DNA of 56,236 bases from a virus. Shown here one piece after another: positions 253-25,185 of this stretch. Below the pieces are notes generated by a model. It searched no databases, was not told where the DNA came from, and worked only from the letters and a program-made list of their open reading frames with translations. Where the stretch lies: IMG/VR virus record IMGVR_UViG_3300035497_000528; one strand, 5' to 3'. A program made the position numbers and the translations under genes. Numbering within the stretch: position 1 is the stretch's first letter; each line of letters starts with the position of its first letter.

Positions 253-708
253 ATGACAAAACAGACAATGATTAAAAATTATAGAAAGTTCAGTGCGGCA
301 GATGCTTACATCTTAGGTTTTATTTACAAACACTTCGTTTACATGATTCAGGTTGATGAAATCATGCCGAGATTCATGCGAGTAGAACATGAATCCAGTA
401 AAAAAGGTGGCGCTGAAAAATTACAGTTCAGACTTCCGCAGAAATACCAAGAACAGCTTATTAAAAAAGGCGCTACGTGCTTAGGTTCAGAAGAAATTTT
501 AAACGGCAGATACAACAAAGGCGTTGAGTTTGAAAGAATTATTTCTGAATTAAACGGACAGGAGTTTAGAGGAAAAGACAATGTTCCATTTTACGTTGAA
601 GGAGATTTGAACATCGACGGAAAAGAAATACAGGTAAAATTTAATGGTGCACAGATTGTTTGTGTAAGAACCTTGAAAAAATTACAGAAAATGCAGAAAA
701 CCGCTTGA
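253..708 (+). CDS. hypothetical protein (track ORF 232..708; start more likely the 253 ATG, spaced after the RBS gaaagagagg)
   Basis: long ORF, RBS about 8 nt upstream of 253, promoter upstream, followed by hairpin ccgcttgacaagcgg. Confidence 0.55.
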   Translation: MTKQTMIKNYRKFSAADAYILGFIYKHFVYMIQVDEIMPRFMRVEHESSKKGGAEKLQFRLPQKYQEQLIKKGATCLGSEEILNGRYNKGVEFERIISELNGQEFRGKDNVPFYVEGDLNIDGKEIQVKFNGAQIVCVRTLKKLQKMQKTA

Positions 709-759
709 CAAGCGGTTCTGCATCTGCTATAATTAGTATCAGAAAGAGAGGTAAATGAA

Positions 760-1676: not shown

Positions 1677-1894
1677 AAGGGGGCAAACAAATGTTCTGGG
1701 TTTTGCGGTTTGTGGACAGCATTGATGATCATTACTTTCTGGAATGGGATAATGCAGTAAAATACTTTCGAGAGAATATTCTTCTGGGAGTAGACAGAAA
1801 AACAAGACTGGAAGCATTAGACAACATAGAAAAGTATGGCGAGTGGCAAGGCTGGTCTATTTATCTCGATGAATTTGAGGATGGTGAGAAGTAA
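1673..1894 (+). CDS. hypothetical protein (73 aa)
   Basis: ORF overlapping the previous stop (ATGA-type coupling), RBS gaaagggggc. Confidence 0.5.
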   Translation: MKGGKQMFWVLRFVDSIDDHYFLEWDNAVKYFRENILLGVDRKTRLEALDNIEKYGEWQGWSIYLDEFEDGEK

Positions 1895-1903
1895 AAAGTC
1901 AAG

Positions 1904-1936
1904 AGTCAAGTTGCACAAACTTGACTCTAAATTTTT
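1904..1936 (+). terminator. rho-independent terminator hairpin gagtcaag..cttgactc plus T-run
   Basis: perfect 8-bp stem then taaattttt; the loop contains the TGCACAAA box. Confidence 0.5.
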
Positions 1937-1950
1937 GTTTAAATTGCCTA

Positions 1951-2010
1951 TTGACAAATTCCAGGAGATGATGTAAAATGGCGCGCCGGCCACGCACCTG
2001 GGCCGGCGAA
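1951..2010 (+). ncRNA. micro transcription unit: promoter (ttgaca 1951-1956, taaaat 1974-1979) feeding straight into GC hairpin cgccggcc..ggccggcg
   Basis: no ORF or RBS; homologous units at 4365-4430 and 6040-6100; a convergent minus-strand promoter (rc of 2017-2046) faces the same hairpin. Confidence 0.4.
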
Positions 2011-2263
2011 ATTTCCATTATACCACACGGCTCAGCTTTTGTCAAGCAAAAAGTTGCACAAATTTTCTCGCTTAAATTTTCCCGAAATTGGGCACTTTGC
2101 TACTGGACCTGTGTCAACTGGCAATCTGCACAAACTTTTTCTGTTATCTTTGTACAGATTGCCTATTGCACTTTTGGTCAAGATGGCTTATAATAGGTTT
2201 ATCAGTTGAGGGGAACAGAAGTCAAGAGCAAACAAAAAAAATAAAAATAAATAAAAAAAATGC

Positions 2264-2292
2264 TTGACAAACTTCCTACTCCATGATATAAT
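2264..2292 (+). promoter_or_regulatory. strong promoter with A-rich UP element and extended -10 (TGaTATAAT)
   Basis: aaaaaaaataaaaataaataaaaaaaatgcTTGACAaac-N-catgaTATAAT; near-identical copies at 3158, 5222, 7055. Confidence 0.65.
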
Positions 2293-2323
2293 AAATACAT
2301 AAAGAACAGAGAGGTAAAAAGAA

Positions 2324-3022
2324 ATGGAGCAGAAAAAAATTGACAGAAGAATTAGTTACAAGGTAGTTTTAGATTGTGAGAGTTGTCCGCTTGACAAAAC
2401 TTTGGAAGGTGTACTTCCTAGCAATATGTTTTCCTATGATGTGGGTTGGGCGGTAGTTGATAAAAGGGGTTTTGTGTATGTAGTGAGAAGTTTTGTTGTT
2501 GATGAAATTTTTAACAAAGAAAAAGAACTGATGCAGTCAAGCTATTATGCAAAAAAAATTCCGATGTATAAAAAGGAAATTGCAGAGGGTAAAAGAATTG
2601 TTGCAAGTTTCTATGAAATCAGAAAACAGCTTGCGGATGACATGAAACTTTATGAAGTCAAGGAAGTGTATGCGCACAACATGCGTTTTGACTATGGAAC
2701 TTTAAACAATACTCAAAGATGGTTGACAAAATCCAAATATAGGTTTTTCTTTCCTTATGGAACTGAAATTTGCGATACTTTGAAAATGTCAAGACAGGTT
2801 ATTGGAAAAATGCCAACTTATCAGAAATTTTGTGAAGAAAATGGTTATTTAACCAAAAATGGCAGACTTCGATTTACCGCTGAAATCCTTTACAGATTTA
2901 TTTCAAAAAACAATGAATTTTCTGAAAACCACACTGGTTTGGAAGATGTTTTAATTGAAAAAGAAATTCTTGCATACTGTTTTAAACAGCACAAGAAAAT
3001 GGTTCGGAAGTTGTGGGCTTAA
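2324..3022 (+). CDS. DEDD-family 3'-5' exonuclease (DnaQ/epsilon-like)
   Basis: Exo I-like VVLDCESC and Exo II-like VYAHNMRFDYGTL motifs; 232 aa. Confidence 0.55.
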   Translation: MEQKKIDRRISYKVVLDCESCPLDKTLEGVLPSNMFSYDVGWAVVDKRGFVYVVRSFVVDEIFNKEKELMQSSYYAKKIPMYKKEIAEGKRIVASFYEIRKQLADDMKLYEVKEVYAHNMRFDYGTLNNTQRWLTKSKYRFFFPYGTEICDTLKMSRQVIGKMPTYQKFCEENGYLTKNGRLRFTAEILYRFISKNNEFSENHTGLEDVLIEKEILAYCFKQHKKMVRKLWA

Positions 3023-3157
3023 ACAAGCCCACAAGGACGGCGAAAAAAAATAAAAAAAAAAAGCTTGACAAACAAGTCAACCTGTGGTATCATTAAAGAG
3101 TAGCAAGGGAAGGAAAGTCAAGAGTGAAATAAAAAAAGAAAAAAAATAAAAAAAGTC

Positions 3158-3186
3158 TTGACAAACATAAAACCCTATGATATAAT
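3158..3186 (+). promoter_or_regulatory. strong promoter (UP element plus TTGACA-N17-TATAAT); second of two tandem promoters (first at 3065-3093)
   Basis: conserved cassette shared with 2264, 5222, 7055. Confidence 0.65.
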
Positions 3187-3239
3187 AAATACATAAAGAA
3201 AACAAAATAAAAATTAAAAGAAAGAAAGAGGTAGGTATT

Positions 3240-3623
3240 ATGACAAACAAAATGACTAACAAAAAGGCACTGGAAATCGCAATCGAGGTTATGAACGCTC
3301 AGGAAAACCCTAATGCAGAGGTTATCGAGAAACTGGAAAAGATTCTTGAGCAGACTGTTAAAAAGAACTCGGCTGAGAGAAAGCCAACAGCAACTCAGAC
3401 CGCAAATGAGGGTCTGAAAGAATCCATTCTCACTTATCTTTTTACTACAAAAACAAAGAAAACAATCTCGGAACTGATGAAAGAAGTTCCGGCACTCGAA
3501 GGACTTGCAAATCAGAAAGTCACAGCACTTGTAAGAGCGCTGAAAGATGATGGTTTGGTTGTAAGAATCGAGGAAAAGCGGAAAGCGTATTTCGCTTACA
3601 ACTCTTCTAAGGAAGAAGAGTAA
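3240..3623 (+). CDS. MTNKMTNK-family small protein, paralog A (putative winged-helix-like C-terminus)
   Basis: three paralogs (3240, 5307, 7140) share N-terminus MTNKMTNKKALEIAIE and C-terminal KVTALVR.LKDDG.V.RIEEKRKAYF; distant relative at 18725. Confidence 0.6.
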   Translation: MTNKMTNKKALEIAIEVMNAQENPNAEVIEKLEKILEQTVKKNSAERKPTATQTANEGLKESILTYLFTTKTKKTISELMKEVPALEGLANQKVTALVRALKDDGLVVRIEEKRKAYFAYNSSKEEE

Positions 3624-3636
3624 AGAAAAAAAATCA

Positions 3637-3657
3637 AGGGGAAATGAAAATTTCCCC
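3637..3657 (+). terminator. terminator hairpin ggggaaatgaaaatttcccc abutting the next -35
   Basis: 4-bp G/C clamp stem with AT loop right after the stop of 3240 gene; ttgaca starts at 3658. Confidence 0.45.
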
Positions 3658-3718
3658 TTGACAATCTCAATCGGCTGTGATAGAATAAGGTATAAACTAA
3701 AGAAAGGAGATAATCAGC

Positions 3719-4087
3719 ATGGATGAAAAGTTGATTGCAAAGCAAATGAAATTGCTCGGTTTGAGCAGAGAGGAAGCAATCCAGTTGATTGAGGATGATG
3801 AGCGGATAGATAAAGGCGAAAAGCTTTTTGATTTATCTAAGGAACAGGAAAAAGCTTCCAAGAAAGCAAGACAGGTTGAAAGGAAAGTGACAGCTTATAA
3901 GTTTGATACTTCTAAGAGAGAAAAGAAAAAGAATCCAGACAAGGAAGAACTGGTTTCAACTATGATTCAAGCATTGTCTGATAGTTTGGGAATTGTGGTT
4001 GATGAAGTTGCAAACCCAGAAAGAGAGTTTGTTTTCCATTTCCATGATACAAAATACAAAGTAGTTTTGAGCGCCCCCAGAAAATAG
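3719..4087 (+). CDS. hypothetical protein, paralog of 7617..8027 (QMKLLGLSREEAIQLIEDDE family)
   Basis: shared N-terminal motif and K/E-rich middle with the 7617 ORF; strong RBS aaaggaga. Confidence 0.55.
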   Translation: MDEKLIAKQMKLLGLSREEAIQLIEDDERIDKGEKLFDLSKEQEKASKKARQVERKVTAYKFDTSKREKKKNPDKEELVSTMIQALSDSLGIVVDEVANPEREFVFHFHDTKYKVVLSAPRK

Positions 4088-4133
4088 GGGGCGAAAAACC
4101 AGAAAATAGGAAAAGCGCAAAGGAGATAAAAAC

Positions 4134-4280
4134 ATGAAACATTTCGGTTTGGTAATCGACAAAAATGCAGATAACATTCTTTTGGATTTAGAAACAGGTG
4201 AGATTCTTGCAAAGGGTAAAAGCGCAATACAGGCGCATCTGTTGAAGCATGAAAACCGTTTCACCTTACAGCTGGTTTAA
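4134..4280 (+). CDS. small hypothetical protein (48 aa, MKHFGLVIDKNADNILLDLETGEIL...)
   Basis: RBS aaaggagataaaaacATG; followed by terminator 4292-4321. Confidence 0.45.
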   Translation: MKHFGLVIDKNADNILLDLETGEILAKGKSAIQAHLLKHENRFTLQLV

Positions 4281-4291
4281 ATGAGATTAAA

Positions 4292-4321
4292 AAGACTTTA
4301 ACTTGTTAAAGTCTTTTTTTT
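4292..4321 (+). terminator. rho-independent terminator aagactttaacttgttaaagtctt plus T8
   Basis: 9-bp stem then tttttttt. Confidence 0.7.
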
Positions 4322-4364
4322 GTGCAAAATGACGAATCAAAATTTTTGTGCATTTTGCCTATTG

Positions 4365-4430
4365 ACAAAATCCAAAAGGTGGAGTATAATTGAGCCGCCC
4401 GATTACGCTTGCGCTGGGCGGTTTTTGTGC
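4365..4430 (+). ncRNA. micro transcription unit: promoter ttgacaaaatccaaaaggtggagtataat then hairpin gagccgcccgattacgcttgcgctgggcgg plus T5
   Basis: no ORF; predicted product is a hairpin-only RNA of about 40 nt; homologous to units at 1951 and 6040. Confidence 0.4.
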
Positions 4431-4503
4431 AGTTTGTATAGTTCAGAGTTTTTCTTTTGGAAATCTTTGTGCAAAATTTTTTAAACGAATTTCCCGAAAT
4501 GGG

Positions 4504-4532
4504 TTGACAAAATGGCACGTAGGCATTATAAT
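4504..4532 (+). promoter_or_regulatory. sigma70-type promoter TTGACA-N17-TATAAT
   Basis: ttgaca 4504-4509, tataat 4527-4532. Confidence 0.6.
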
Positions 4533-4557
4533 AGTCTTATCAAATGAAAGAGAGGTA

Positions 4558-4848
4558 ATGAAAATGGTAGATAAATATTACATGACAATCAATGGAGCTG
4601 AATACAACGCACTGTTCGCTGACCCATTTGAGGCGGCTGACTTCCTCGATGCGAATGACGCAGATGGCAACGTGACCATCATCAACCGTATCCAGTCCAT
4701 GACTCCTCAGGAGGCTTTGGATGATCCGGAGTTCGATACTGGATACAAGGCTGAGGTAGTAGCCGCTGTACTCATTCCGAACCATCGTCAGTACACCAAG
4801 AGTGAACAGCTGATTGACCTGCTGAAAGGCTTAGGCTATCAGCTGTAA
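4558..4848 (+). CDS. hypothetical acidic protein (96 aa; track ORF 4390..4848 runs through the promoter, true start likely 4558 or 4564)
   Basis: RBS gaaagagaggtaATGaaaATG in frame; codon-like composition only after 4558. Confidence 0.5.
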   Translation: MKMVDKYYMTINGAEYNALFADPFEAADFLDANDADGNVTIINRIQSMTPQEALDDPEFDTGYKAEVVAAVLIPNHRQYTKSEQLIDLLKGLGYQL

Positions 4849-4853
4849 GCCTA

Positions 4854-4884
4854 AAGCCAGCCCGATAATTGGGCTGGCCGCTTT
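4854..4884. terminator. bidirectional terminator hairpin gccagcccgataattgggctggc
   Basis: follows the 4848 stop; also ends the leftward transcript from the minus-strand promoter at about 4915-4945. Confidence 0.5.
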
Positions 4885-5221
4885 CCACTGACGCGGCCAG
4901 AATTTCGATTATACCACAGGCTTCAGCATTTTGTCAAGTAAAACCGGCGAAAAAACTGCACAAATATTTTTCCCAAAATTTGTGCAGTTTGCCGATTGTG
5001 TTTTTGGGGCAGATGTGGTATTATAATAATGTCAAGAGGGAAGAGAAAAGGCTTCCAAGAGAAAAGAAAAAAAATAAAAAAAAAAAAACTCTTGACAAGT
5101 TAAATAAGAAGTGTTATAATAAAGACATCAAGAAGGGAAATGAGTTTCCTAACAGTCGAACTTGGATAGGTTGTAATTGGCGGTCGGATGAGCCATCTCA
5201 AAAAAAAATAAAAAAAACTTC

Positions 5222-5250
5222 TTGACAAACACTTCAAAGCATGATATAAT
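5222..5250 (+). promoter_or_regulatory. strong promoter cassette copy (UP element, TTGACA-N17-TATAAT)
   Basis: ttgaca 5222-5227, atgaTATAAT 5241-5250; an additional upstream promoter at 5093-5120 appears to give a non-coding leader. Confidence 0.65.
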
Positions 5251-5306
5251 AAAAACATCAAAAGGAACAAGGAAAAAGTTCTAAAAACCAGAAAGGAATT
5301 GATACT

Positions 5307-5702
5307 ATGACAAATAAGATGACAAACAAGAAGGCACTGGAAATTGCAATCGACCTTATGTATGCTCAGGAAAATCCTGACAAGGAAGCTATTGAAAAGC
5401 TTGAAAACATTCTTTACCAGACTAACAAGAAGAACTCTGCATCAAGAAAGCCGACAGCAACGCAGGTTGCTAATGAAGGTCTTAAGACTGACATTATCGC
5501 TTTCCTGTCCGATGGTAAGAGAGCAACAGTAACAGAAATCATGAAGGGTGTGGCAAGCCTCAGCGGTCTGTCTAACCAGAAGGTTTCCGCTATTGTTAGA
5601 CAGCTCAAGGAAGATGGGGTAGTTATCAGAATCGAGGAAAAGAGAAAGGTATATTTCTACCTTGCTAATCTTCCGGAAAGCAATGAGGAAACTGAGGAAT
5701 AA
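5307..5702 (+). CDS. MTNKMTNK-family small protein, paralog B
   Basis: same family as 3240 and 7140. Confidence 0.6.
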   Translation: MTNKMTNKKALEIAIDLMYAQENPDKEAIEKLENILYQTNKKNSASRKPTATQVANEGLKTDIIAFLSDGKRATVTEIMKGVASLSGLSNQKVSAIVRQLKEDGVVIRIEEKRKVYFYLANLPESNEETEE

Positions 5703-5726
5703 TCCTCAGTTTCCCCCAAAAGGGGG
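5688..5726 (+). terminator. tandem terminator hairpins (ctgaggaataatcctcag; cccccaaaaggggg) abutting the -35 at 5727
   Basis: two perfect inverted repeats straddling the stop codon, followed by ttgaca. Confidence 0.45.
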
Positions 5727-5787
5727 TTGACAGCTAGTCTACGCTATGGTATAATAACAGTATCAAAAAGAAAGAGAGGGAAATAAA

Positions 5788-5988
5788 ATGGATGTTTATG
5801 GTTTGGTAAATACTTCTTTAACGCTTGCAAGAATGATTGAGAATGAAAAGGCTCAAGATGCTAAACATTTCGCAAATGCAAGATGTAAGCCCGGAAGTTG
5901 GGTAGGAGTTGCCGCGTACGCAACTGACATGTGCCATGTGGAGTGCACAGGAGAGGAGATAAGAGAAGCCGCATACTTCTACAGTTAA
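5788..5988 (+). CDS. hypothetical protein (66 aa, Cys/His-containing)
   Basis: RBS agagagggaaataaaATG; terminator gaagccttcgggcttcttttttt follows. Confidence 0.5.
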   Translation: MDVYGLVNTSLTLARMIENEKAQDAKHFANARCKPGSWVGVAAYATDMCHVECTGEEIREAAYFYS

Positions 5989-6039
5989 AGAAGCCTTCGG
6001 GCTTCTTTTTTTTGTATAATTTTACCACTTGACAAATTC

Positions 6040-6100
6040 CAGAAGATGTGGTATAATTGGCCGGCCGTGGTCGCATGCGACGGCCGGTTTTTTCGTCAAT
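6040..6100 (+). ncRNA. micro transcription unit: promoter ttgacaaattccagaagatgtggtataat then hairpin ggccggccgtggtcgcatgcgacggccgg plus T6
   Basis: promoter followed within about 7 nt by a perfect GC hairpin and U-tract; no ORF. Confidence 0.45.
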
Positions 6101-6148
6101 AGTCAGTCTGCACAAAATTTCTCCCTGATTTTTGGTAAAAGTGCACAA

Positions 6149-6177
6149 TTGACATTTTCCCAAAATTTTGGTATAAT
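6149..6177 (+). promoter_or_regulatory. sigma70-type promoter with adjacent TGCACAA box
   Basis: ttgaca 6149-6154, tataat 6172-6177. Confidence 0.55.
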
Positions 6178-6207
6178 TTCTTTAGAAAGTAAAGGAGGGA
6201 ATAAACA

Positions 6208-6417
6208 ATGGATGCTTTTAAGAGAGAAACAATGATAGGTTTTACCTGTTGGGATATCAATGCAAAGTGTGTTCATAATCGGAACAGGGCAAAAGACGCC
6301 CACATGGTAAAGCGGTCAGCAAGAAGAAAAAATCGAGAAAAGTTAAAAAAACTATTGACAGACCCTCAAATCTATGTTATAATGATTACATCAAATGAAG
6401 AAAGAGAGGAAATGTAA
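6208..6417 (+). CDS. hypothetical basic protein (69 aa)
   Basis: strong RBS aaggagggaataaacaATG; the 3' end overlaps the promoter at 6355-6383. Confidence 0.45.
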   Translation: MDAFKRETMIGFTCWDINAKCVHNRNRAKDAHMVKRSARRKNREKLKKLLTDPQIYVIMITSNEEREEM

Positions 6418-7054: not shown

Positions 7055-7083
7055 TTGACAAACCTAATAACCCATGATATAAT
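7055..7083 (+). promoter_or_regulatory. strong promoter cassette copy (UP element, TTGACA-N17-TATAAT)
   Basis: ttgaca 7055-7060, tataat 7078-7083. Confidence 0.65.
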
Positions 7084-7139: not shown

Positions 7140-7517
7140 ATGACAAACAACAAAATGACAAACAAAGTAGCCCTTGAAATCGCAATCGAAGCAGTTAGAG
7201 CAACAGGCAATGAAGAAGCAGTTGCAAAGCTTGAGAAAATTCTTGAGCAGACCATTAAGAAAAATTCAGCAGAGCGCAAGCCGACTGCTACCCAGACTGC
7301 TAATGAAGGTCTGAAAAATGTTATCCTTACTCATCTTGCAGGCGGTGCTTCCGCTACAATCTCCCAGATGATGAAGGAAATTCCGGAACTGGAAGGTTTA
7401 GCAAACCAGAAGGTAACAGCCCTTGTTAGACAGCTCAAAGATGAAGGTAAAGTTATCAGATTTGAGGAAAAGAGAAAAGCTTACTTCAAGCTTGCGGAAA
7501 TTGAGGAGGAGGAGTAA
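7140..7517 (+). CDS. MTNKMTNK-family small protein, paralog C
   Basis: same family as 3240 and 5307. Confidence 0.6.
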   Translation: MTNNKMTNKVALEIAIEAVRATGNEEAVAKLEKILEQTIKKNSAERKPTATQTANEGLKNVILTHLAGGASATISQMMKEIPELEGLANQKVTALVRQLKDEGKVIRFEEKRKAYFKLAEIEEEE

Positions 7518-16601: not shown

Positions 16602-16632
16602 ATTTTTATAAAGTAAAGAAAAGGAGAATTAT

Positions 16633-16851
16633 ATGAAGGTGATAGAATATGGTAGAAAACGAGTTAGATGTCAGAGTTGTTTATCTCTTTTAGAATATGA
16701 AAGATCTGATGTAAATTGCCGAGAAGGTAATACAAATTCAAAAAAATGTTATTTTATTGTTTGTCCAGTTTGCGGTAAACAGATTCCTGTTATAACTCCT
16801 ATTCGGATGACTGATACAGCAAAACTTAATGAGGATGAAGGTCGGAATTGA
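16633..16851 (+). CDS. zinc-ribbon protein (72 aa)
   Basis: CQSC..(40)..CPVCG. Confidence 0.5.
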   Translation: MKVIEYGRKRVRCQSCLSLLEYERSDVNCREGNTNSKKCYFIVCPVCGKQIPVITPIRMTDTAKLNEDEGRN

Positions 16852-16876
16852 TTTTTTTATAAAAATTTGATATAAT
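16848..16876 (+). promoter_or_regulatory. conserved module-2 promoter
   Basis: ttgatt 16848-16853, tataat 16871-16876. Confidence 0.5.
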
Positions 16877-16946
16877 ATTTATAGAAAGTTAAAGAAGAGA
16901 AGAAATAAAAATCATACCAGAAGTGAAATGAAAAGGAGAATATATT

Positions 16947-18584
16947 ATGGAATTATTTGATATGCTTTCCGCAACTGAGAAAAGAACAATGGAGTGCTAT
17001 ATTGATGAATATGCTATGGATGAAGATGTTGATCTGCATGAATCAAGAAAGGCTCCGCTTGATTATATTATGAGAGTTTGGAATGAGCAGAAGGCAGTTT
17101 ATCTTAGCAAGCTGATGAAAGGTCAGTTGATTCTGAAGAAAGAAGTTCAGTTTGAGAAGAGTCGTTATGAACTTTTTAATGAGATTAGAGATAAGCTGCT
17201 GAATAATTCTTTTGCGCCGCTTCCCGCAGAAGATAGCGAGTTTATTGCTACTTATCGTTCTAAGTTCCTTAATAACAAGGGCGATTATTATAATAACGCT
17301 CGTGAATTTGATATGTATATGCTGATTGATCCATCAACTTTGATTGACAATGTTTGGGAGCGTGAGAGTTTTATTCTTGACCTTCCAAATGGAAAGGTTA
17401 TGAAAATCAATCATGGCGAAAAGGTCACCAGAGCCCTTGGTAAAATCGCCAAAGCTTTTGATATTCCGGGATTTGAGAGATTTCGTATCTTACATTCTCA
17501 GATTTTGAACCAGAAGAAACTCAAAGGCAATCTTTGTCTTTCTATTCATCCGCTTGATTTTATGACAATGAGTGATAATGCTTCTGGCTGGTCTTCTTGC
17601 ATGAGTTGGGAAGATGGTGGTTGCTATAGAATGGGCACTGTAGAGATGATGAACTCTCCAATGGTTCTTTGTGCTTATTTAACTGGCTCCGCTCAGATGA
17701 CTATGCCGGATGGAACAAACTGGAATAATAAGAAATGGCGTGAACTTTATATTGTTACTCCGGAGATTATCACAAATGTAAAAAGCTATCCATACTTCAA
17801 TGAGAATCTTTCCAGAGAAGTTCTTGCCTGGGTAAAAGAGCTTGCAGTTGAAGCTGGTATTGGAGATTATACTGAGAAAGCTCAGGGTTACAAAGCTTTT
17901 TCATGGGATTTTAATGAAGAACTGAATACGCATTTCTATGTTGATCCATATACTTATCAGATGTATAATGATTTTGATCATAATCATTTTTGTTATTTAA
18001 GCAAAACACTTGGAAAAGATAAGGATTTAAGATTCTGTTATTCCGGTCCAACAGAATGTATGTTTTGTGGCGGAATAAATCAGTATTTTGAAAGTGAAGG
18101 TTACTTAGTGTGCAGTGAATGTGAAGATTTTTATTATTGCGCTGAATGCGGTGACCGCATTAATCCAGATGAAAGTATTGAAATTGATAATGAATTACTT
18201 TGCAATTATTGTTATAGTCATAGAGTCGTTGAAGATGCTATTACTGGAGATGAGCATTTAAAAGATAATTGTGAAAAAATTTATTTAGCAACTCTTAAAG
18301 ATAATCGCTATTATTATAATAGATTGATTTATATTTATGTGGATGATGAACTTTCATATAAAGAAAGATTAAAAGAATTTTTTATTAATCCAGATGAATT
18401 AAAGTTATCATTAGATAATACTGCTTATATGGCAGATGTAAATAATCTTACTGACGAAGGGTTTAAGTTGTTTGGTTATGAATCTAAGAAAGACTTTTTA
18501 TTCAACGTTGCGACTTGTCATGAATATAGCACTGAAATTATTAGGTCATCTTTTAGCAGTGCAGACTTTAGTTGGGTCTTTTAA
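16947..18584 (+). CDS. large hypothetical protein, paralog of 21232..22617, with C-terminal array of CxxC zinc ribbons
   Basis: shared core GNLCLSIHPLDFM..W.SC... and NWNNKKWRELYIV with the 21232 ORF (GRLCVSVHPLDFI..W.SC.. KWNSKKWRVLMFM); C-terminal CxxC pairs. Confidence 0.55.
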   Translation: MELFDMLSATEKRTMECYIDEYAMDEDVDLHESRKAPLDYIMRVWNEQKAVYLSKLMKGQLILKKEVQFEKSRYELFNEIRDKLLNNSFAPLPAEDSEFIATYRSKFLNNKGDYYNNAREFDMYMLIDPSTLIDNVWERESFILDLPNGKVMKINHGEKVTRALGKIAKAFDIPGFERFRILHSQILNQKKLKGNLCLSIHPLDFMTMSDNASGWSSCMSWEDGGCYRMGTVEMMNSPMVLCAYLTGSAQMTMPDGTNWNNKKWRELYIVTPEIITNVKSYPYFNENLSREVLAWVKELAVEAGIGDYTEKAQGYKAFSWDFNEELNTHFYVDPYTYQMYNDFDHNHFCYLSKTLGKDKDLRFCYSGPTECMFCGGINQYFESEGYLVCSECEDFYYCAECGDRINPDESIEIDNELLCNYCYSHRVVEDAITGDEHLKDNCEKIYLATLKDNRYYYNRLIYIYVDDELSYKERLKEFFINPDELKLSLDNTAYMADVNNLTDEGFKLFGYESKKDFLFNVATCHEYSTEIIRSSFSSADFSWVF

Positions 18585-24784: not shown

Positions 24785-24856
24785 TGGCGTGTAGCTCAAT
24801 GGTAGAGCATTCGGCTGTTAACCGAGGGGTTGTGGGTTCGAGCCCCACCATGCCAG
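24785..24856 (+). tRNA. tRNA-Asn (GTT)
   Basis: cloverleaf resolved: acceptor tggcgtg/catgcca, D gctc..gagc, anticodon stem ttcgg/ccgag with loop ctGTTaa, T gtggg-ttcgagc-cccac. Confidence 0.7.
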
Positions 24857-25185
24857 TTTTGTAGCATAATATAAGGTGATGTAACTTACCATCTGAGGTT
24901 CGTGTACCGAGAAACAGAAAAAACGAGGTTGGCAACTTACCTGCACAGACATGCTGAAAAGTTGCAAAAAAGACATAAATCACTAAGTCTATAAAATTAC
25001 GTGTGCGGTTGACGTCAATGGGGGTCACAAAGTTGCGGGTTGCGCTCGTCGCTTAGCCAAAAGGAAAAACCACTACCGCAGAAATGCGGAATATAAATAT
25101 GGATTTGCTTAGTTGGTGACTTTTAAAATGAGGAAAGCGATCCAAATTGATTTTAAATAAAAAATATGATATAATATTTATATAA

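Follow-up and report, generated by a model that had tools for sequence, protein, structure and literature searches.

The first 9 kb of IMG/VR record IMGVR_UViG_3300035497_000528, a 56,236-nt stretch of viral DNA (called the window here, always at its full length), are filled with small genes on the + strand. Nearly each of these genes is preceded by a TTGACA-17-TATAAT promoter, and 18 promoter sites in the 9 kb match the consensus hexamers at 12/12 positions. Between 1.9 and 6.2 kb, and only there, promoters of this type are joined to GC-rich hairpins in compact cassettes: five TTGACA-17/18-TATAAT consensus promoters (window 1951-6057) adjoin such a hairpin (Table 1). Three of the five are read along the + strand and meet the hairpin 3-4 nt past the promoter, with folding energies of -18 to -21.5 kcal/mol; as had been proposed, they are homologous, forming a repeat family (D12, at 1941-1988, 4352-4399 and 6019-6066) whose members are 71-77% identical. 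The remaining two, M1 and M2, are read along the - strand. An 8-mer box accompanies both kinds of promoter and is found at further sites between the genes.

The original prediction, that promoters here fire directly into terminator hairpins, was largely sound in its overall observation, since promoters, hairpins and box are non-random and conserved, but several of its details needed correction. A U-tract follows hairpins 2 and 3 as described, whereas hairpin 1 is followed by AAATTTCC. Both - strand promoters are indeed 12/12 matches (2045-2017 and 4937-4908), but the second fires into a hairpin of its own (4874-4900) and lies ~500 bp from any + cassette, so that only one of two supposed convergent pairs, 1951+/2045-, exists. 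Nor are the members of this pair 60 bp apart: their -10 hexamers are separated by 37 nt and their predicted start sites by ~23 nt. The exact copies of the box between 1.9 and 6.2 kb are the ten listed in Table 1; several of the positions given earlier were off by a few bases, one ('2118') by 9, and that placed at 6143 is TGCACAAT, which carries one mismatch. Enrichment beyond composition was borne out, with 13 copies of TGCACAAA in the 56-kb window against 2.84 expected, a count reached in 0/100 shuffles. The box had been described from these intergenic regions and from none of the coding parts inspected; ten copies lie within 1904-6180 and three outside it (9004, 48363 and 51242), which is about a chance number.

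Table 1. Promoters, hairpins, boxes and terminators of the cassette region; positions are those of the window.
Feature	Position	Strand	Composition
Promoter remnant	1897-1928	-	-35-like AGTCAA (reverse complement TTGACT), 9 nt, box TGCACAAA at 1912-1919; no -10; repeat family D15
AT-rich inverted repeat around the 1897 remnant	1902-1928		Terminator-like on both strands
Sense promoter P1	1934-1979	+	Degenerate box TTTGTTTA 1934-1941, 9 nt, TTGACA 1951-1956, 17 nt, TAAAAT 1974-1979
GC hairpin 1	1984-2008	both	CGCCGGCC / GGCCGGCG, 25 nt, 8 bp; common to convergent P1 and M1; no U-tract on either strand
Antisense promoter M1	2017-2062	-	-10 2022-2017, -35 2045-2040, box 2055-2062, 9 nt upstream of -35
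M1 initial transcribed sequence		-	GGAAATTT, then hairpin 1
Promoter remnant	2112-2134	-	TGTCAA, 9 nt, box 2127-2134; no -10; repeat family D15
Box promoter with weak -35	2149-2194	+	TTTGTACA, 9 nt, TTGCAC, 17 nt, TATAAT; same architecture in relatives
UP-type promoter and gene	2264-2292; gene at 2324		Downstream of the 2149-2194 box promoter
Intrinsic terminator of gene 4134-4280	4291-4326	+	T-tract continues into box TTTGTGCA 4319-4326
Sense promoter P2	4345-4390	+	Box 4345-4352, 9 nt, TTGACA 4362-4367, 17 nt, TATAAT 4385-4390; core 4362-4390, 12/12 consensus
GC hairpin 2	4395-4431	+	27 nt (4395-4421), 6 bp perfect, 10 bp as folded; T-tract 4422-4426, overlapping box 4424-4431
Box and near-palindromic motif	4466-4500	+	Box 4466-4473, ATTTCCCGAAAT 4489-4500; gene promoter 4504-4532 downstream
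Terminator-like hairpin of gene 4564-4848	4856-4878	+	GCCAGCCC / GGGCTGGC; 5-nt overlap with next hairpin
27-nt GC hairpin beside M2	4874-4900	both	CTGGCCGC / GCGGCCAG; no U-tract; no facing partner promoter
Antisense promoter M2	4908-4964	-	-10 4913-4908, 18-nt spacer, -35 4937-4932, box 4957-4964, 19 nt upstream of -35
M2 divergent partner	4967-5027	+	TTTTTCCCAAAATT motif, box 4979-4986, 9 nt, weak -35 TTGTGT, 17 nt, TGGTATTAT(AAT)
Intrinsic terminator of gene 5788-5988	5987-6010	+	
Third-cassette sense promoter	6011-6057	+	Degenerate box TTTGTATA 6011-6018, TTGACA 6029-6034, TATAAT 6052-6057; core 6029-6057, 12/12 consensus
GC hairpin 3	6061-6093	+	27 nt (6061-6087), 8 bp, then TTTTTT
Promoter remnant after T-tract	6094-6116	-	CGTCAA, 9 nt, box 6109-6116; no -10; repeat family D15; 'T-tract state' of the module

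The same arrangement recurs in relatives. A first set, made up of the window and 20 non-redundant related loci, contained 578 consensus-type promoters, and a cassette was scored wherever a GC-rich hairpin with 6 bp or more of perfect stem lay within 14 nt downstream of the promoter. This was so for 83 of the 578, as against 1.5 (maximum 4) when the 50 downstream bases were shuffled. A second set of 96 loci, 70 of them stretches in IMG/VR and 26 in genome bins, was retrieved with the box-promoter 25-mer TTTGTGCAWWTTKCCTATTGACAAA and yielded 247 further cassettes of the same geometry. Judged from sequence, a module that recurs in hundreds of copies is a true regulatory system rather than a product of chance. 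Two classes are apparent in the first set, antisense (M, n = 52) and sense (P, n = 31). In M cassettes 7-8 nt with the consensus GGAAATTT separate the -10 hexamer from the stem, and in P cassettes 3-4 nt. The length of the hairpin is nearly constant in both sets (mode 27 nt). A T-rich tail is present in 0/52 M and 8/31 P cassettes of the first set and in 6/134 antisense and 21/78 sense cassettes of the second, and short hairpin-only RNAs ended by terminators, once envisaged for all cassettes, are thus not supported as a general rule.

The stems themselves differ widely between copies within one genome, and 56 distinct arm sequences occur among the 83 cassettes. All nine stem pairs vary on both sides, and the covariation score is 0.48 compared with 0.16 in shuffles; as these cassettes were chosen for having hairpins, the unbiased evidence for the stem is the shuffle enrichment given above. 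A comparison made with no selection for hairpins gave a similar picture, the first 42 nt folding at -12 kcal/mol or below for 79% of antisense box promoters and 7% of ordinary + promoters. Against this background of variable stems, C6, C21 and G22 of the hairpin are kept in 50/52 M cassettes, within a CG pattern that has a period of ~5 nt.

Most hairpin promoters have no gene to drive. No ribosome-binding site with an open reading frame (ORF) follows 72 of the 83, whereas 304/417 hairpin-less + promoters have them, and 52/83 are antisense to genes. The A content upstream is 30% for hairpin promoters and 51% for ordinary gene promoters, the former mostly carrying the box instead. In P cassettes the stem begins 3-4 nt past the -10 hexamer, so that the usual start, the 7th nt after -10, falls within the 5' arm. 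The RNA of cassette 2 would accordingly fold at -7.8 kcal/mol from its own predicted start and at -18 to -19.4 kcal/mol when read through from upstream, and that of cassette 3 at -14.5 and -21.5 kcal/mol, while for cassette 1 the energy is little changed. Hairpin 2 is thus a predicted terminator for read-through RNA that would be weak in RNA starting at P2. Among P-only and shared hairpins, stability is greater in the + strand RNA (25 vs 4), and M-only hairpins have no clear bias (17 vs 10); the preference in energy for the + strand is modest. Wobble asymmetry (G-U vs A-C) was 35 vs 19 for P (p = 0.04) and 46 vs 39, not significant, for M. A T-tailed hairpin lies within 110 nt of 14/52 M units; in the window, the predicted M1 RNA could end at the terminator-like hairpin 1902-1928 after ~115 nt (z-score -3.0).

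The box has a fixed relation to promoters. TTTGTGCA is oriented towards the -35 hexamer and lies either 9-10 nt upstream of it (66 cases, including some at 8 nt) or 19-20 nt upstream (23 cases), two distances that differ by one helical turn; a perfect-palindrome form, TTTGTGCAAATTGCACAAA, also occurs. Many copies lie 9 nt before a weak -35 (TTGTAA, TTGCAT or CTTGCA) in promoters that have a good extended -10 and are soon followed by a ribosome-binding site. Its oriented placement, and its presence at gene promoters with a weak -35, indicate that the box acts like an activator or UP-type site; an operator guarding decoy transcripts, as first supposed, does not fit. Promoters with such elements or activator sites centred around -41.5 to -61.5 are familiar from the UP element, class I and II activators and the p4 protein of phage phi29. 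The box resembles these in its orientation, its position on one helix face upstream of -35 and its association with weak -35 promoters, but TTTGTGCA-N9 is not the A/T-rich UP consensus and the box is also found at full-consensus promoters.

M cassettes are tied in position to the gene promoter that follows. They lie directly 3' of the intrinsic terminator of the upstream + gene, so that on the M strand the hairpin is followed by an A-run and the reverse complement of that terminator. On the other side, the box of the next gene promoter is 41-42 nt from the M -35 in ~30/52 cassettes (41 nt for M2 and box 4979-4986 in the window), which leaves 58 nt between the divergent -35 hexamers, a stretch that holds two boxes set back to back. 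The window also contains a near-palindromic motif, (A)TTTCCCGAAAT or TTTTCCCAAAATT, at 2077-2089, 4489-4500, 4967-4980 and 6155-6167; in relatives it takes the form ATCCYRAAA at a fixed position immediately upstream of the gene-promoter box, and it may resemble the CodY-box consensus.

The 27-nt hairpin itself occurs in four contexts: with M only, with P and M, with P and a T-tract, and with a T-tract but no facing promoter. Downstream of hairpins of 25-29 nt, the hexamer TGTCAA is found either 27-32 nt away, where an M core intervenes (49 cases), or 4-11 nt away, where there is only a T-tract (16 cases), and almost never at distances in between. This bimodal distribution indicates that the U-tract and the opposing promoter core are discrete, interchangeable occupants of one slot. 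Some copies look like ordinary intrinsic or tandem terminators: in the window (4395-4426, 6061-6093), and in relatives that show the T-tract state, a GC hairpin with a U-tract closely follows another terminator. Most copies, including all M-type copies and convergent pairs, have a promoter core and no U-tract on either strand. Convergent P and M promoters are present at 15/68 hairpin loci, including 1951+/2045- of the window, with -10 hexamers 33-38 nt apart, too close for two polymerases to bind together. In coliphage 186, pR and pL are likewise convergent, with starts ~62 bp apart, and drive the genes of alternative programmes. Both arrangements are face to face, such that polymerases must collide or exclude each other; here, however, at least one promoter of each pair is gene-less, and the antisense member serves no gene.

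From these elements, with their fixed geometry, conservation, stem covariation and box-promoter association, we infer a mechanism for what may be conserved, modular boundaries between small early transcription units. In this tentative reading, to which we would give somewhat less than an even chance, the cassettes both separate and drive small early genes, each boundary being fused to a regulated promoter; what suggests it is that one hairpin slot accepts either a U-tract or an M core, as expected of a back-up terminator or antisense roadblock placed next to a regulated promoter. Of the three functions first suggested for the region, a transcriptional insulator for the early module fits best. 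Along the gene strand, a module would run from the stop codon of gene A through an ordinary intrinsic terminator and a ~27-nt GC hairpin to either a U-tract or a perfect host sigma-A-type promoter core facing the hairpin (M), sometimes with P on the hairpin's other side, and end with two back-to-back boxes at fixed spacing and the promoter of gene B. Polymerase running out of gene A would meet a second obstacle at the hairpin slot. Where a U-tract follows, this would be a back-up intrinsic terminator; with an M core, a polymerase bound there or firing head-on would hinder read-through by occlusion, roadblock or collision, and M would yield a short antisense RNA whose 5' end is capped by the hairpin. 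P, starting inside the stem base, would make an RNA less affected by the hairpin than the incoming RNA, and so may restart transcription after termination. The box would be a putative site for a factor or polymerase subunit that aids the gene promoters with a weak -35 and couples them to M; a palindromic site, formed by the box and an adjacent degenerate half-site, would centre near -43 or -53.

Several observations sit uneasily with such boundary modules. Start sites, termination and interference are all predictions. A pure barrier on the + strand needs neither the strict 7-8 nt spacing of M nor the conserved GGAAATTT, which suggests that the hairpin has a further role, either within the M transcript or at the step of initiation. 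As so few M units have a T-tailed hairpin close downstream, M RNAs may be long antisense RNAs, and the wobble counts mark no functional RNA strand for M hairpins. The conserved CG positions of the hairpin hint at a sequence-specific recognition that a boundary would not explain, and the box-binding factor is so far hypothetical. A bolder pair of proposals takes up some of these points, although we would not expect either to be right: the gene-less full-consensus promoters could be escape-limited polymerase traps or roadblocks, held by a 27-nt CG-periodic hairpin clamp and coupled (58 nt, paired boxes) to a weak gene promoter, so that polymerase captured there would shield the gene upstream and also supply, or set the timing of, the gene downstream; or the 27-nt hairpin RNAs could be a new class of abundant phage non-coding RNA with a specific protein partner.

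The closest known system is that of the promoter-early stem-loop (PeSL) cassettes of T4-like phages (Arbiol et al. 2010, PMC2839356; Comeau et al. 2014, PMC4122927), which have been proposed to terminate upstream transcription and then restart it (PMC2839356), much as envisaged above for P. Both are small composite intergenic motifs in a plastic early region that combine a strong host sigma-70-type promoter with a GC-rich stem-loop, and in one PeSL subclass the stem-loop also lies just past the -10 hexamer, before the start site. The present cassettes share the strong promoter, with 12/12 or 11/12 hexamers and 17-18 nt spacers, and the joined stem-loop, 3-8 nt from -10. They differ in several respects. 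PeSLs are all directed at the gene that follows, with a ribosome-binding site and ATG at their end, whereas most copies here are antisense or gene-less; the hairpin of 27 nt and its spacing are fixed, and the 8-mer box stands where PeSLs have an A-rich upstream element; a constant 58 nt ties the antisense promoter to a divergent promoter of a gene; and the hosts are of Firmicutes type rather than Gram-negative. Terminator and mini-circle activities of PeSLs have been demonstrated experimentally, while the cassettes described here are known from their sequences alone. New with respect to PeSLs are thus the antisense gene-less consensus promoters, the choice between U-tract and opposing promoter in one slot, and the coupling of divergent promoters by the box.

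One alternative is a temporal switch, in which binding of the paired boxes by a host factor or an early phage protein activates the promoter with the weak -35 and shuts off or traps M; before such binding, M would capture polymerase unproductively. A resembling case would be protein p4 of phage phi29 at the A2c, A2b and A3 promoters. The boxes lie one or two helical turns from -35, inverted pairs at fixed spacing separate divergent promoters, perfect palindromes exist, and a weak -35 hexamer is typical of those box promoters that serve genes, all as such a switch would have it. The combination of a full-consensus promoter with a GC-rich initial transcribed region is known to slow promoter escape, and M, which has both, may be expected to behave in that way. 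The binding protein, however, is hypothetical, and the box does not vary together with the winged-helix paralogues encoded nearby; moreover, a switch alone explains neither the need for a hairpin nor the replacement of the M core by a T-tract. We consider it unlikely, but it is compatible with boundary modules and does not exclude them.

It is also rather improbable, in our judgement, that the cassettes are genes for small trans-acting hairpin RNAs, acting as decoys or sponges for a host or phage RNA-binding protein, a nuclease or a defence system, or modifying polymerase in the manner of put, with promoters whose purpose is to produce the hairpin. Their promoters are very strong and drive no ORF, the 27-nt hairpin is constant with its CG positions kept, its stem covaries, copies are many per genome, the U-tracts of window cassettes 2 and 3 would give RNAs of ~30 nt, and the M1 RNA has a candidate end of its own. 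Yet the same hairpin is found with a T-tract and no facing promoter, M hairpins have neither a U-tract nor, in most units, a T-tailed hairpin downstream, and sense promoters start within the stem. Stem sequences diverge widely among the copies of one genome, M hairpins carry no strand-specific wobble signal, and there is no Rfam match: an E-value search of 1800-6300 gave nothing above noise, with two sub-threshold chance hits at 3585-3669. The HK022 put element is a two-stem-loop RNA of ~65-70 nt, just past an early promoter, in sense orientation and ahead of terminators and genes. Here there is a single hairpin, which also occurs without a promoter, and most copies are antisense to genes, with no genes downstream that antitermination could serve; the put-like RNA initially entertained can be set aside.

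It seems very improbable that the main role of the cassettes is in recombination, as linkers whose repeated sequence promotes the shuffling of small early genes, or that they are selfish regulatory units that spread, with their transcription features secondary: ~100-150 bp are indeed highly repeated within and between genomes, PeSLs offer a precedent (PMC2839356), and comparison of the window with its relative L016 (91-98% identical in aligned blocks) reveals one early gene replaced (window 260-743) and another, 1691-1894, precisely deleted (window 1694-1889), but these breakpoints fall at ordinary promoter/5'-untranslated-region boundaries and gene ends, none at GC hairpins or box promoters, and stems that have diverged yet remain paired, with spacing held to 1 nt, indicate selection on function and not homology only. 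The breakpoint positions are consistent with a cassette-like turnover of genes.

Further candidates were rejected. A tRNA-like minihelix with 3' CCA fails because CCA follows the stem in only 27/52 M cassettes, where it arises as the reverse complement of the G-rich sequence after a facing -10. The box is not the hidden -35 of another promoter, there being no -10 at a workable distance; unpaired centres of 7-15 nt would make extrusion of a DNA cruciform unlikely; and a replication origin with iterons does not agree with copies that are scattered in their dozens and always joined to a promoter. A solitary mimic of a CRISPR (clustered regularly interspaced short palindromic repeats) repeat, as in RNA anti-CRISPRs, was dismissed as well, since stems differ between copies and the one candidate host repeat compared (ATTTCAATCCGCGAGGCACTTGCGTGCCTCGAC, locus L035) has, by eye, no evident likeness to the hairpin consensus. 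A literature search for the 8-mer returned unrelated primer sequences only, and a review of Herelleviridae transcriptomes describes no such cassettes.

Three paralogous proteins of ~125-131 aa that begin with MTNKMTNK (window 3240-3623, 5307-5702 and 7140-7517) had been put forward as binders of the box. Their C-terminal part gives sub-threshold winged-helix matches only (ArsR/MarR/BlaI-like), and among relatives they and the box do not occur together consistently: homologues are found in the box-free loci L006, L017, L019 and L024, and tblastn detected none in the box-rich loci L007 and L009. They may still bind the box, but the comparison lends this no support. All three also match a segment of Cas8g1/Csx17 weakly (TIGR04113; even the best E-value, 2.6e-05, falls far short of the curated cut-off). 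Upstream of MTNK-type genes we noted two to four tandem consensus promoters, ~70-130 nt apart and with no ORF between them (window 3065-3093, 3158-3186, 5092-5120, 5222-5250 and 7055-7083; L007 17270-17470); the RNA between the promoters contains purine-rich stretches and a recurring GTCAAGAG motif (window 1898, 2221, 3116 and 5032). In L007 a further ORF-free, structured-looking stretch of ~400 nt (16622-17020) lies between a winged-helix gene and an M cassette, and has no counterpart in the window.

The window comes from a large phage-like genome and contains 27 tRNA genes on the + strand (24785-38264) that cover most amino acids and have ORFs in between, and an Rfam search of the whole window at gathering thresholds gave 28 matches, all tRNA. 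A near-identity DNA search of cultured phages produced no match. The neighbouring 232-aa protein (2324-3022) belongs to phrog_20187 and is 41% identical to proteins of ~140 kb Enterococcus phages; 24 relatives of it were found in IMG/VR contigs of up to 182 kb. The region checked in Enterococcus phage EF1 contains 0 exact copies of the box and only two weak look-alike cassettes. The cassettes belong to a clade of large (~130-200 kb, tRNA-rich) uncultured gut and rumen phages, whose hosts are probably Clostridia. A clue to the host is provided by a CRISPR array of 57 repeats on the reverse strand of L035 (2059-5866; CANRJG010000036.1, an uncultured Lachnospiraceae bin), whose spacer 43 (CCCACAATTTTGTGCAAATTGCCTATTGACAAAGC) consists of the box, 9 nt and the -35, with the 25-mer match at L035 3043-3067. 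This spacer matches dozens of phage loci, with 28/28 bases in several, 25-26/26 in most and 33/35 in three, which suggests a Lachnospiraceae host for the clade. The spacer is in itself a case of a match between a CRISPR spacer and a multi-copy regulatory element.

These findings would carry the concept of the compact promoter/stem-loop cassette beyond T4-like coliphages, to large uncultured phages that infect Clostridia of the gut and rumen, and for a group with no cultured member they supply predicted start sites and terminators as well as one regulator site. The cassettes may also be of use as expression parts for Firmicutes, being strong, compact and insulated. Members of this phage clade can be sought with the conserved 25-nt box-promoter element, a practical marker, and the spacer matching it in at least one Lachnospiraceae CRISPR array suggests where their hosts are to be sought.

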